Shown piece after piece: positions 8,620-17,023 of a stretch of 64,000 nt of DNA. The stretch spans positions 1 to 64,000 of the forward strand of contig CAVXJH010000006.1 of assembly GCA_963762115.1 (NCBI GenBank). Reading direction: 5' to 3'. The notes under the pieces were generated by a model. That model was not told where the DNA came from, ran no database searches, and saw only the letters and a list, made by a program, of their open reading frames with translations. Position numbers and translations under genes: made by a program. Every line of letters starts with the position of its first letter. Position 1 is the first letter of the stretch. The DNA comes from Candidatus Babeliales bacterium (GTDB taxonomy: Bacteria > Babelota > Babeliae > Babelales > JANWKD01).

Positions 8620-9219
8620 TTACTTTTTGCGTTCTAAAACAGCTTTATAATCAGCAGCACGTGGCCAACGTCTTGGATTAAGCGCTTCTAATGCATTGAT
8701 TTTTTGCTCAATAGTCACAATATCACCAGCAGTTAATACACTTTCTGATAATAAAGTATTTAACTCATCACGAGCGTTATTAATTTGCTCCCTATTATCA
8801 CCACCTTTATGATGACCACGTCGCCCTTTACCATGGTGATGACCACGACGATGAGGGCCACGGTGACGACCTTGAATTGCTTCCGGTGCTGGGACTGCAA
8901 GACCCGTTTTTATTAAGAGCTGTGCAAAATCTGATTTTACTTTTTGATTATGATGATGACGAACACCATGACCATGCCGATGATGAGCTCCTTTTAATCT
9001 TCCATGCCTTCCCTTACCCCAACGACGCGGACAAATTCCTCCCGGACATTGCCTTTGCACCCCCACACCTTGCGCAGCGGGTTGCAATCTATTTTCTAAA
9101 ACCGTTAAATCTTCTTGTAAATCCACTAAAGCATTTTGTAAATCTGATTGCTGCATTGCATACACAAAACTAAAAGTTCCTAAAAAAAATAAAACGAGAA
9201 TTTTACCTGAATTGTTCAT
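8620..9219 (-). CDS. hypothetical secreted His/Arg/Gly-rich protein
   Basis: Signal peptide ending VYA|MQQ, an AAAAGGAGA RBS, and two H/R/G-rich tracts. Confidence 0.75.
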   Translation of the reverse strand: MNNSGKILVLFFLGTFSFVYAMQQSDLQNALVDLQEDLTVLENRLQPAAQGVGVQRQCPGGICPRRWGKGRHGRLKGAHHRHGHGVRHHHNQKVKSDFAQLLIKTGLAVPAPEAIQGRHRGPHRRGHHHGKGRRGHHKGGDNREQINNARDELNTLLSESVLTAGDIVTIEQKINALEALNPRRWPRAADYKAVLERKK

Positions 9220-9388: not shown

Positions 9389-10216
9389 TTATAGCCGTAG
9401 GATATCTGCTATTTCAGGTGGGATAGAAATAAATGCGTCAAGAATTCGTTCGACATCTTCTTGAGAGAAGGGGCCCATAGATGTTTGAGCAGATTGATCT
9501 ATTCTAGGTGATTCATAAGGGCTACGAAATCGCTTTGTGGTATTCGATGTATTTAACACTGAATTTGATTGTGAATGCATTGTATCATCAATTTTTCTTT
9601 TTTTTGATCGATGAACTTTATCGTAATGTGCTTTATATTCTTTTTGGTTTGGAAATGTTCGTATGTGGTTGCATTTCTTGCAATTATGAGGAGTTTGATC
9701 TGATTGATGATCTTTAACTGATCGATGAACTTCATAGTAATGTTGGTTATATTCTTTTTGGTTTGGAAATGTTCGTATGGGGTTGCATTTCCTGCAAGCA
9801 TGAGGAGCTTCTGATCGATGATCTTTAACTAATCGATGATCTTTACCGTAATGTTGGTTATATTCTTTTTGGTTTGGAAATATTTGTATGGGATTGCATT
9901 TCCTGCAAGTATAAGGAGTTTGATCTAATTGATGAACTTCATAGTAATGTTTTTTATATTCTTCTTGACTTGGAAATGTTTGTGCAGGGTTACATTTCCT
10001 ACAACGAGAACGGGATAATTTAGTATTGTTCTGTGGCTCGGGTTGCGCTCTAGCGCAAGCAGTTAATCCAAGATAGACTGACGTTGGGTTGAGATAAGTT
10101 GGTTGCGTGTTGTTCTCATTAAAGAATTCAGCGTGTTGTTCCATTGCAAATAATGAGCTGCATGAGAACGCAAGGAGAAGCGCTGTAATCAATCTCGTTT
10201 GAGATCTAATCTTCAT
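9389..10216 (-). CDS. secreted protein with four C2H2-like zinc fingers and a basic NLS-like motif
   Basis: Signal peptide ...SLFA|MEQ; 4x C-x2-C-x5-F-x5-Y-x2-H-x4-H; then SKKRK. Confidence 0.75.
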   Translation of the reverse strand: MKIRSQTRLITALLLAFSCSSLFAMEQHAEFFNENNTQPTYLNPTSVYLGLTACARAQPEPQNNTKLSRSRCRKCNPAQTFPSQEEYKKHYYEVHQLDQTPYTCRKCNPIQIFPNQKEYNQHYGKDHRLVKDHRSEAPHACRKCNPIRTFPNQKEYNQHYYEVHRSVKDHQSDQTPHNCKKCNHIRTFPNQKEYKAHYDKVHRSKKRKIDDTMHSQSNSVLNTSNTTKRFRSPYESPRIDQSAQTSMGPFSQEDVERILDAFISIPPEIADILRL

Positions 10217-10407
10217 AATGAAGTGCCATATACTATTTAACTTTTTTTTAATAATGAAATTTCTTTCTAAATCTAGCATAAAAAGAGTTCAAGCTTAAAC
10301 AATGAAAAGCTTTTATTTTGATTTTGATTAGGGTTTTTTGTAGGATTATGTCTTGTAATTTTTTTTGCTTATATGATGACACTCAATCATACAAAAAAAT
10401 AATGTTA

Positions 10408-14464: not shown

Positions 14465-17023
14465 ATGAAAAACCTCCAAAAAACAGCCTTATTTTCACTT
14501 TTTTTCATTCTCTCTTTACCCTTACTGGGTATGGAAGAACAAAATCAAGCTATTACGTGGTTTAAAACAGCAGATGAGCAGTATGTTTCATCGCAAGAAC
14601 CTATTATTGCTCAATGTGTAACACTACAACATTCCATAGAAGATGCAGGACAACTATCATCACAAGAAGATATTATACGTTTACCAATAACAAAAACAGC
14701 ACTTGATACAGCACAAAGCATGTTAAACCGAGCAGATAATCAACCTCACTTATTGGCAAATTTGATAACAGAATCAAACGAACCATCAATAATGCAACAA
14801 ATACTCTATCTTGATATTCCTCTGTTCTCCTCAGCATTTAAAATACTTGCAGAAGAGAACACAACAACAACATCAAAAAGAAAACGCGCAGAGAACACAA
14901 CAGCACTACAAAAATATTTCAAAAAACAAAAAAATAACTCTGAACAAGACAATCAAGAAGACGTTGTAATCATAGAAACTGGTGATGGTAAACAAATTTT
15001 ATTTCCAAAACAATTAATGAAATATACAACAGTATTTAATAATGTTATCAGTGATACTCAGGAAGATACTAATATCATCCCTACCCCTATAACGGCCGAT
15101 GACATCACTATTCTTAAAGATTTTCTTTCATTCTTTGCAAAAATGGATAGTTCTTATCATTGGCAATTTCAAAAAAAATTATCAACAAGACTTGATCATT
15201 TAAAAACAAAAAAAGAAAAAAAATTAAAGCGGCTTAAAGAAAATAAAACATGTACCACCATGAGCATAGAAATTGACGAACAACATAATAAAAAACAAGA
15301 CAAAGAAAATGCATTAAGCAAACAAATCGCATCTTTAACAGAAGAACAAAAAGAAAACATAAGAAAAGGAATAGAAGCACGCTTCGACCAAAAAACGACC
15401 TCTGCTGAAATTTCTTCTGCAACAGCAAGAAATTCAATAATTCTTGAAAAAGCTATGCACTATTTTAAAGAACACAATGTATCATTTGAAAAAATTATAG
15501 ATTTAGCACAACTTGGTGATTATGCAGGATGCCAAATCTTATTTGATGCTGCAATTAACGTAGCTCACGATCATCTTGTGAGCAATTCTCAAAATCATCC
15601 TGATTTCTTCAGCTCATTGCATGGTTCAGTTGCAGCTGCGCTTAATGAAAAAACACAAGAAATCATTACAGAAAAAAAACATCTCAATAGAACACTATCA
15701 AGAACTATGATACTGCCAAAATTAGACTATTCTACCATACAAACAATACATGATGATGAAATAGTAATCGGGCAAAATGGACACAATATAACGTTACTCA
15801 ATAAAATAACAAACTCCATAATGCCATTAAAAGGAATGCCGCTCCAAATCTCACCTGATGGTTCATTATTTGCTCAACAACTCTATCAAACAGTGTTATC
15901 ATCGGCACAATTGGAAATTATTACCGTAAAAGATAAAACAAAAAAAGCTATTTCTTTAGAAGAACTGTTTTCTGACAATGACGTATATGCCGATTCTATG
16001 ATTCCGGTAAACGAAAAACCAAACATACTATCATATCATTTTGTTGATAATGGTGCAGCACTGGCAATAACAGTACATTATAATGGAGCAATTCATCATT
16101 GCAGATATTCAGTTATTGATGAAACATTAACAATCGTAAAAACGTGTGGATTGCCGCATGATGACACAGAATTTTTATGCCAAGTATCAGATCATCATAA
16201 CGTCTTTATAGAAAGAAAAGGCGTAGTAGACACAGGAAGTTCTTTATTTTTTAATAATAAAAAACAATCAGTACCTCATAATGCCCCTCTTTTACCCTAT
16301 TGCTTTAATCATACTAATGATACCATGATAACGTATAGCGATGTAGAGAAAAAGTTTACCTTATGGAATACAATAACAGGTGAAGTAATCAACGAAATCG
16401 AATATGACAATAAAGTGTATCACCTTATTTATAACGCTCACACGAATACTCTTATAGCACTCACTCAACCAAGTCTTGCTCAAGCTCATATTGCTTGTTT
16501 TGATACAATAACAGGAGCACAAAAATCTGCTCTTGATATAAGCAATAATCTTACTTATGTATCATCGAAAAAGAATTGTTTAAAAAAAATCAAGGATTTT
16601 TCTCTCAGCCCCAATGGTAAACATATTTTGATTAGACAAATAGATCTCATGCGAAACTCTCCAATTACCTCACTATTAGAGCTAGAAACAGGAACAATGC
16701 TTTTGAATTTTGCAGAAGATACTCAAGCAATGTGGTTACCTGATGGATCACTGATGAAGGCTCAAGCAACTGCAATTCCTTATAGTAATAAACCAGTAAC
16801 GCTTACTCTTTCATATGACTTATATGATGCACAAGCAACACAAGAAGCATTACGTAGTTGTTCACTAGAAGAATCATTGTTAATTGAAAGAATAATTAAG
16901 AGCAATGCTTATATATTAAACGATCAAGAAGAAGCGGTCTATAAAGTATTATTGGAAACATTACCGGAAACATTACGAGAAGCATTAAGAAACATTATAG
17001 AATCACCTATTACAAAAAAATAA
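14465..17023 (+). CDS. secreted protein with Skp1/BTB-like segments and a C-terminal beta-propeller-like region
   Basis: Signal peptide ...LLG|MEE; IETGDGKQILFP..MKYTTVFNNVI and IIDLAQLGDYAGCQILFDAA resemble Skp1; ISPDGS, WNTITGE, FSLSPNGK resemble WD40/TolB blades. Confidence 0.6.
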   Translation: MKNLQKTALFSLFFILSLPLLGMEEQNQAITWFKTADEQYVSSQEPIIAQCVTLQHSIEDAGQLSSQEDIIRLPITKTALDTAQSMLNRADNQPHLLANLITESNEPSIMQQILYLDIPLFSSAFKILAEENTTTTSKRKRAENTTALQKYFKKQKNNSEQDNQEDVVIIETGDGKQILFPKQLMKYTTVFNNVISDTQEDTNIIPTPITADDITILKDFLSFFAKMDSSYHWQFQKKLSTRLDHLKTKKEKKLKRLKENKTCTTMSIEIDEQHNKKQDKENALSKQIASLTEEQKENIRKGIEARFDQKTTSAEISSATARNSIILEKAMHYFKEHNVSFEKIIDLAQLGDYAGCQILFDAAINVAHDHLVSNSQNHPDFFSSLHGSVAAALNEKTQEIITEKKHLNRTLSRTMILPKLDYSTIQTIHDDEIVIGQNGHNITLLNKITNSIMPLKGMPLQISPDGSLFAQQLYQTVLSSAQLEIITVKDKTKKAISLEELFSDNDVYADSMIPVNEKPNILSYHFVDNGAALAITVHYNGAIHHCRYSVIDETLTIVKTCGLPHDDTEFLCQVSDHHNVFIERKGVVDTGSSLFFNNKKQSVPHNAPLLPYCFNHTNDTMITYSDVEKKFTLWNTITGEVINEIEYDNKVYHLIYNAHTNTLIALTQPSLAQAHIACFDTITGAQKSALDISNNLTYVSSKKNCLKKIKDFSLSPNGKHILIRQIDLMRNSPITSLLELETGTMLLNFAEDTQAMWLPDGSLMKAQATAIPYSNKPVTLTLSYDLYDAQATQEALRSCSLEESLLIERIIKSNAYILNDQEEAVYKVLLETLPETLREALRNIIESPITKK

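Follow-up and report, generated by a model that had tools for sequence, protein, structure and literature searches.

Host-directed regulators and the phylum background

Bacterial proteins that serve as transcription factors in a host are, to our knowledge, few, with the TAL effectors (TALEs) as the model case, and multi-finger C2H2 arrays are, as far as we know, regarded as eukaryotic. Ros/MucR proteins (PF05443), which like the protein described here are bacterial and use Cys/His zinc ligands, are cytoplasmic single-finger regulators of the bacterium's own genes. Among secreted regulators, passages of PMC12886408 describe TALEs of Xanthomonas, Ralstonia and Mycetohabitans as combining a secretion signal, tandem repeats, a nuclear localisation signal (NLS) and an activation domain, and, according to sections of PMC8112483, intracellular Ehrlichia secretes the repeat proteins TRP32, TRP47 and TRP120, which bind DNA of the host. 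In the rice blast fungus, MoHTR2 pairs a signal peptide with a C2H2 finger; nuclear entry in the host and suppression of its genes are described for the MoHTRs, with MoHTR1 entering via an RxKK NLS (excerpts of PMC12488382). Host-associated Kistimonas (Endozoicomonadaceae), a member of a different phylum, has many zinc-finger genes for which a role in host interaction has been suggested; the excerpted text of the review (PMC12491435) leaves finger type, signal peptide and NLS unstated.

The organism studied here, a Candidatus Babeliales bacterium, belongs to the phylum Babelota (Dependentiae, TM6), all cultured isolates of which infect protists (excerpts of PMC12172432). Type II secretion is given as the sole secretion system found in Babela (parts of PMC4378268), and, according to parts of PMC6561590, Chromulinavorax replicates in the cytoplasm of its host, shows budding vesicles and has signal peptides on 44% of its CDS. 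A literature search, with most subscription papers outside its scope, turned up no publication that deals with secreted C2H2 arrays from Babelota. The word 'zinc' is missing from the main texts of PMC4776705 and PMC12644861 and is used for transport only in that of PMC6561590; the main text of PMC4378268 has a single 'finger', a RING protein, and its supplements hold no C2H2. In a supplementary table of PMC4776705, TM6 genes bear automatically assigned labels, 'Zinc finger, C2H2 type' among them, and C2H2 occurs there at least nine times, so that C2H2 domains have been annotated already and are undiscussed in the main text. Here we describe P0001, a four-finger protein with a predicted export signal, which we propose, with a probability of roughly 0.5, to be a secreted host-nuclear effector acting like a transcription regulator.

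The P0001 gene, its product and its homologues

The gene lies in a window of 64,000 nucleotides (the whole stretch of DNA that was analysed: assembly GCA_963762115.1, contig CAVXJH010000006.1, positions 1-64,000) from a genome of 1.53 Mb in 7 contigs, with ~34% GC and 95% completeness. It occupies window positions 9389..10216 on the minus strand as an intact frame of 275 aa without internal stop, a call based on translation and on the homologues P0004 and P0005; a start at an in-frame ATG at 10279 would lengthen the product by 21 residues. The gene is intronless, agrees with the genome in local GC and, on its 586-kb contig, is flanked by msrB and a GH3 gene. In a genome of the same genus, msrB, a 123-aa ORF and the GH3 gene stand in conserved order and the slot lacks the P0001 gene; it is an accessory gene, with the turnover expected of an effector. 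No Rfam family matches within the window, promoter-like sites are at chance level (7 vs 8.7), no terminator was found, and the one low-depth DNA read run gave coverage of flanking pieces only.

Several other features of the locus and the assembly deserve mention. The neighbouring gene on the minus strand (8620-9219) encodes a secreted protein of 199 aa with a high content of His, Arg and Gly and no Pfam or NCBIfam family; it is likewise missing from the syntenic slot of the same-genus genome, and a similar ORF, also Arg/Gly-rich, lies at C5:165492-166088. On the plus strand, 14465-17023 encodes an 852-aa secreted protein with weak Skp1/POZ and WD40 matches, which is likely one of several ubiquitin-pathway effectors, and RING-like Cys/His patterns in secreted proteins at C6:328336-329400 and C6:476844-477428 (G000) mark these two as candidate host E3-ligase mimics. 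Frame breaks interrupt the genes for EF-Tu, EF-G and ribosomal protein L3 (L003, G000 C7:64000-78000); these breaks are most likely assembly indels, and gene counts for this genome may therefore be affected.

An earlier note on this DNA had described a secreted array of four recently duplicated fingers, followed by an NLS and an acidic end, and this description is confirmed, with qualifications. A basic stretch at the very N-terminus leads into a hydrophobic core, with Ala-Met at residues 24-25, giving a predicted Sec signal peptide of residues 1-24 (10145..10216, minus strand; sequence and heuristic scans) and a predicted mature chain from Met25. Signal peptides were called not with SignalP but with a simple pattern, in which a hydrophobic core and a small residue precede Met, and by this heuristic the claimed signal peptide is confirmed. 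The array itself consists of four exact copies of C-x2-C-x5-F-x5-Y-x2-H-x4-H, with first residues 72, 104, 141 and 179, a pattern of which 0 of 20,000 protein shuffles yielded even one copy. All on the minus strand and called from the pattern and both structure models, finger 1 (C-x2-C-x14-H-x4-H), the most diverged copy, lies at 9932..10003, finger 2 at 9836..9907 after a linker of 8 residues, finger 3 at 9725..9796 after 13 residues, and finger 4 at 9611..9682 after 14 residues. The duplication is indeed visible in the DNA as one family of four 111-nt copies, spaced 114/111/96 nt and 72-89% identical to the reference copy, with which TRF concurs. Finger cores are 78-90% identical in pairwise comparison, all 16 zinc ligands and the F/Y core are intact, and the array carries a net charge of +15. 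Between fingers 2-4, pN is 0.10-0.15 and pS 0-0.09, so that amino-acid-changing differences are not rarer than silent ones, at very few sites.

The fingers depart from Krueppel arrays in the features by which such arrays read DNA. Fourteen residues, not 12, separate Cys from His, and Tyr, not Leu, stands at helix position 4; this departure from Krueppel spacing and Leu extends to 4/4 fingers, whereas relatives in the phylum conform (Leu in 158/166). Helix residues across the four recently duplicated fingers are S/N at -1, E/K at 2, E at 3 and K/Q/Q/A at 6, with no Arg at -1 or 6, and linkers of 8, 13 and 14 residues differ from the seven-residue TGEKP-like type. Fingers that wrap DNA in register normally require short fixed linkers. 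Given the atypical spacing, the Tyr, the near-fixed base-contact positions and the variable linkers, sequence-specific DNA binding is less certain than in relatives, and the long variable linkers suggest that the array may bind as separate modules. We count these non-canonical features against a transcription-factor-like reading.

One residue past the last His stands SKKRK, a predicted classical monopartite NLS (9593..9607, minus strand; sequence and homologue alignment), where the earlier note had placed it. It is followed on the same strand by a Ser/Thr/Asn/Gln-rich spacer of low model confidence that is likely disordered (9470..9592; alignment and both models) and contains a second basic patch, KRF, common to P0004. 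The C-terminal segment (9389..9469, minus strand; alignment, both models and composition) is acidic and amphipathic with two short predicted helices. The acidic and hydrophobic end of the earlier note is thus present from 9469, but it is only mildly acidic, with a net charge of -4 across the last 39 residues. As for an activation-like domain, the tail fails a strict composition rule for activation-domain tiles, yet the end motif I-x-I-P-x-[ED]-I-x-x-hydrophobic-hydrophobic is kept in 3/3 family members and is unique among the ORF ends of its genome. We regard it as a candidate cofactor-binding motif, and propose a docking function because the tail is conserved, not because of its composition. 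The tail resembles KIX-binding and cullin-box motifs, a resemblance for which a PDB sequence search gave no support: the tail drew one hit at E 1.6, which is chance level, and no solved-structure relative. Its last 11 residues alone resemble a cullin-box or F-box start. An F-box/SOCS-box ubiquitin-ligase adaptor was considered and rejected, as P0001 has no such Pfam match up to E 1 and no BC-box ahead of these last 11 residues.

Structure prediction agrees with a zinc-finger fold. AlphaFold2 was run once on the sequence alone and once with a three-row alignment, and both models predict four strand-strand-helix units, that is, a beta-beta-alpha fold, with finger blocks mostly at pLDDT 60-88, disordered flanks, a tail below pLDDT 50 in the second model and low global confidence (pTM 0.23 and 0.19). 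With the first model, C2H2 arrays account for all Foldseek matches listed (best E 8e-3, none at 0.001) and for the top 26 of the 50 rows listed by a VIA structure search (best match Z 4.6, rmsd 4.0 A over 59 residues). We count the C2H2 identity of these matches for a transcription-factor-like reading and their weak scores against it. All four repeats (4/4) carry the classical C2H2 ligands and an aromatic/hydrophobic core. In Pfam nothing reaches the curated cut-off, the best matches being C2H2_ASCIZ (E 5e-4) and zf-C2H2 (E 0.013), and the PF00096 score of 16.3 bits stays below the gathering threshold of 25.2. NCBIfam has no family for P0001, and a PDB sequence search with the family alignment gave 13 hits at chance level (best E 0.24). 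Identity with Ros/MucR was ruled out, as the 95% complete genome has no PF05443 match.

An exhaustive HMMER search with the finger region returned nine proteins, namely P0001, P0004, P0005, P0003 and five that we treat as generic repeat matches. The true homologues are the metagenomic P0004 (35% identity) and P0005 (38%), related across the alignment, each with a hydrophobic leader and three fingers of the P0001 type. Both carry a basic motif right behind the last His (SKKRK in P0004, SKRK in P0005), and finger linkers in the homologues span 3-24 residues. Preservation of this layout (leader, fingers, basic motif, tail motif) at 35-38% identity is counted for an effector; the absence of the first tail helix from P0005 is counted against it. 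P0003, also metagenomic, has seven tandem long-loop fingers similar to the P0001 type, one canonical finger and no clear leader. Word-index searches recovered no relatives with P0003 and, with P0001, either P0001 only or P0001 and P0004. The protein has no match in 40 related genomes, the family alignment drew only three weak generic matches from 260 other genomes of the phylum, a metagenome scan gave one generic eukaryote-like C2H2 ORF, and a viral scan gave 0/154 candidates. The exact finger spacing of P0001 occurs in 3/261 genomes: its own, one with a real finger (L034/L058), which belongs to a cluster of secreted C2H2 genes in a different member of the phylum, and a third whose match, antisense to a membrane-protein gene, was discarded as chance.

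C2H2 repertoires of the genome and of Ca. Babelota

P0001 is an atypical member of a repertoire that extends through the phylum, and the larger result is this phylum-wide arsenal. The paralogue search proposed earlier was productive already within the genome, where a C2H2 pattern scan found 30 ORFs; eight of these were discarded as chance matches in unrelated proteins and 22 were retained as C2H2 proteins. The signal-peptide pattern is present in 21 of the 22, and the remaining one has a hydrophobic leader upstream of its first Met. Fifteen of the genes, all predicted to encode secreted proteins, stand head to tail in one tandem cluster at C6:348531-361607 (G000; locus L004:1544-14608), in which many stop and start codons of adjacent genes overlap. 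Twelve of the 15 are close paralogues (54-70% identity to the first) with three fingers and an invariant KRT motif, and their helix positions are most variable in fingers 1 and 3, which makes the cluster a better test case for diversifying selection than the P0001 gene. The HTGEKP[YF] linker was not found in this genome by a DNA pattern scan.

P0001 shares the Met-type signal-peptide pattern of its own genome. In 225-241 ORFs this pattern ends directly before Met, often Met-Glu or Met-Gln, in a scan that required Met, so that the count does not represent a share of all secreted proteins; mature proteins with such leaders would start like eukaryotic cytosolic proteins. NLS enrichment among the genome's C2H2 proteins is modest with paralogues collapsed (3/11 vs 8/131, p 0.04) and was obtained with a pattern tuned after the data had been seen. 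Activation-domain tiles are not enriched in them (6/22 vs 27/131).

Across the phylum, PF00096 at E 0.01 matches 59/151 genomes, 35 of them above the curated cut-off and with a maximum of at least 52 matches in one genome, compared with 1/14 control genomes. The HTGEKP[YF] DNA pattern occurs in 32/261 phylum genomes from 8 families, and its reversed control in none. Arrays occur in relatives deep inside large contigs. A finger census of the best 20 loci by score, a set biased towards canonical fingers, comprises 32 proteins with at least two fingers, and a hydrophobic leader precedes the array in 25 of the 26 that are 5'-complete. These loci contain 166 fingers, of which 129 retain the Phe and 158 the Leu at helix position 4. 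Variation is greatest at positions -1 (Q, T, R, S, D) and 6 (R, T, K). Of the 134 linkers, 109 have a length of seven residues, and 30 read exactly TGEKP. One Krueppel-type protein of the phylum falls nearest to animal Krueppel-type clusters in Atlas, with a score of 0.95 that is below the recognition threshold and serves as a lead.

A wider set draws on 35 loci and numbers 46 complete array proteins, among them one antisense shadow frame; 28 of the 46 pass a stricter signal pattern. Class-1 NLS motifs outside the fingers occur in 14/46 of these proteins and in 3/144 other secreted proteins of the present genome (shuffles: mean 0.24, maximum 4), whereas a loose K[KR]x[KR] pattern shows no per-protein difference (26/46 vs 69/144). 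Activation-domain tiles are weakly enriched in the relatives (18/46 vs 30/144, p 0.02), and p-values here overstate the case, since paralogues and kin do not count as independent samples and a single genome supplied the control.

Individual loci illustrate the range of these proteins. In related genomes, the predicted secreted products of L018, L030, L031, L015, L019, L010 and L033 carry 4-10 canonical Krueppel fingers joined by TGEKP-type linkers, together with basic motifs (KRKR, for instance); their genes often form tandem arrays in which near-identical repeats differ at helix positions. At L057:8294-13284, in a genome of the same family (G003), secreted multi-finger proteins have acidic stretches and then LLxLL-like helices at their ends, which presumably resemble eukaryotic cofactor-binding motifs.

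Considering the parts together (signal peptide and NLS, TGEKP-linked Krueppel arrays, acidic tails and, often, tandem clusters), the balance leans towards a phylum-wide, fast-evolving arsenal of secreted C2H2 transcription factors in Ca. Babelota that would bind host promoters and reprogram protist transcription, with P0001 as a diverged member.

Proposed role and comparison with known systems

We propose a model in which P0001 would be exported by the Sec route and cleaved before Met25, released into the host cytosol via type II secretion or membrane vesicles, loaded with zinc and then taken into the nucleus through SKKRK in an importin-alpha-dependent manner. There the basic finger array (+15) would engage DNA or chromatin, probably less sequence-selectively than a Krueppel array, while the conserved amphipathic tail may recruit a host co-activator or co-repressor. 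The heuristic signal peptide, the two secretin genes of the genome and its place in a phylum of protist parasites are consistent with host-associated secretion; passage of the Cys-rich fingers through the periplasm on the Sec route counts against the delivery step. TLC ATP/ADP translocase matches occur at three loci of the genome. The earlier note had gone on to infer a nucleomodulin, and of this the parts that concern export, zinc-finger fold and NLS-like motif stand. The DNA-reading and activation steps are weaker for P0001: canonical spacing and TGEKP linkers are absent, base-contact positions are nearly fixed among its four recently duplicated fingers, and the tail fails the strict tile rule although its motif is conserved. 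Homologue conservation and the secreted Krueppel-type arsenal of the phylum strengthen the export, fold and NLS parts.

As the main rival reading, P0001 might be a secreted nuclear adaptor or decoy whose fingers are independent modules for host protein or RNA, with the array adding avidity and the tail docking a second partner, a possibility that we regard as tentative and less probable than a regulator-like effector. It would fit the fixed N-cap-like residue at -1, the Glu at 3, the aromatics along the helix and the near-identical repeats, as well as the linkers of 3-24 residues across homologues; fingers of the H-x4/5-H type with long linkers are often RNA- or protein-binding, and a sub-threshold zf-met match and zf-C2H2_jaz clusters in Atlas (scores 0.81-0.82) provide leads in the same direction. 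Such an adaptor would, however, sit less easily with a strongly basic array, with the mostly DNA-bound arrays among the fold matches listed, with the exact-spacing finger in a secreted C2H2 cluster of another phylum member (L034) and with relatives whose repertoire is plainly DNA-binding in type. Combining the readings that take P0001 to the nucleus, a host-nuclear role appears quite probable. It is unlikely, by comparison, that the protein is exported but stays outside the nucleus, in the periplasm, on the bacterial surface, in the vacuole or in the cytosol, for example as a metal-binding or structural repeat with SKKRK as a basic helix cap. A Sec signal by itself reaches the periplasm only, and Lys/Arg patches are common in an AT-rich genome, with K[KR]x[KR] in 69/144 control proteins; yet the strict class-1 motif is frequent in secreted array proteins (14/46) and rare in controls (3/144), the position of the basic motif is conserved in P0004 and P0005, and we know of no use of TGEKP-linked arrays besides nucleic-acid binding.

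Two further explanations question the gene itself. If the gene were a decaying or neutral leftover of an effector family that duplicates rapidly, without current function, this would account for a protein unmatched in 40 related genomes, a family alignment with only three weak generic matches in 260 others of the phylum, and fingers 2-4 in which, at very few sites, amino-acid-changing differences are not rarer than silent ones. We consider this reading very unlikely, given that the frame is intact, the 16 zinc ligands and the F/Y core are retained, and two distant homologues carry the same motifs. Eukaryotic DNA mis-binned or mis-assembled into a bacterial genome might be suspected from the eukaryotic character of C2H2 arrays and the frame breaks in conserved genes of this assembly, but this is already largely refuted and highly improbable: the gene's neighbours on its 586-kb contig, msrB and a GH3 gene, show synteny with the same-genus genome, the gene itself lacks introns, matches the genome in GC and uses the genome's own signal-peptide pattern, its paralogues are packed with overlapping stop and start codons, and arrays are found in relatives deep within large contigs.

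A regulator-like nuclear effector invites comparison with the described systems. Krueppel/TFIIIA arrays (PF00096; PRDM9, ZFAT and CTCF structures), which give the top fold matches listed, consist of the same tandem beta-beta-alpha fingers and share with P0001 the order C-x2-C...F-x5-hydrophobic-x2-H-x4-H. Relatives in the phylum match this family fully, TGEKP linkers included, whereas P0001 is bacterial, intronless and provided with an export signal, has a beta-loop two residues longer, Tyr at position 4 and long, variable linkers, and scores below the Pfam cut-off. If our reading of the phylum is true, the arrays that some two fifths of the sampled genomes encode, provided with export signals and NLS motifs, represent an unrecognised form of protist-host control and a natural library of zinc fingers evolved outside eukaryotes. 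With the C2H2 recognition code, binding motifs of the canonical relatives can be predicted, and some isolates of the phylum infect amoebae. Such arrays would join TALEs as a second class of bacterial transcription-factor effectors that are modular and code-readable. TALEs rely on type III secretion, a 33-35-aa repeat and a one-repeat-one-base code, whereas P0001 has a Sec-type leader and a eukaryotic zinc-finger fold. MoHTR2, in the excerpts of PMC12488382, is a fungal protein of 110 aa with one finger region and a plant host, whereas P0001 is a bacterial multi-finger array with a presumed protist host. In layout P0001 resembles the TAL effectors, and in fold and route the MoHTR effectors; it belongs to neither group.
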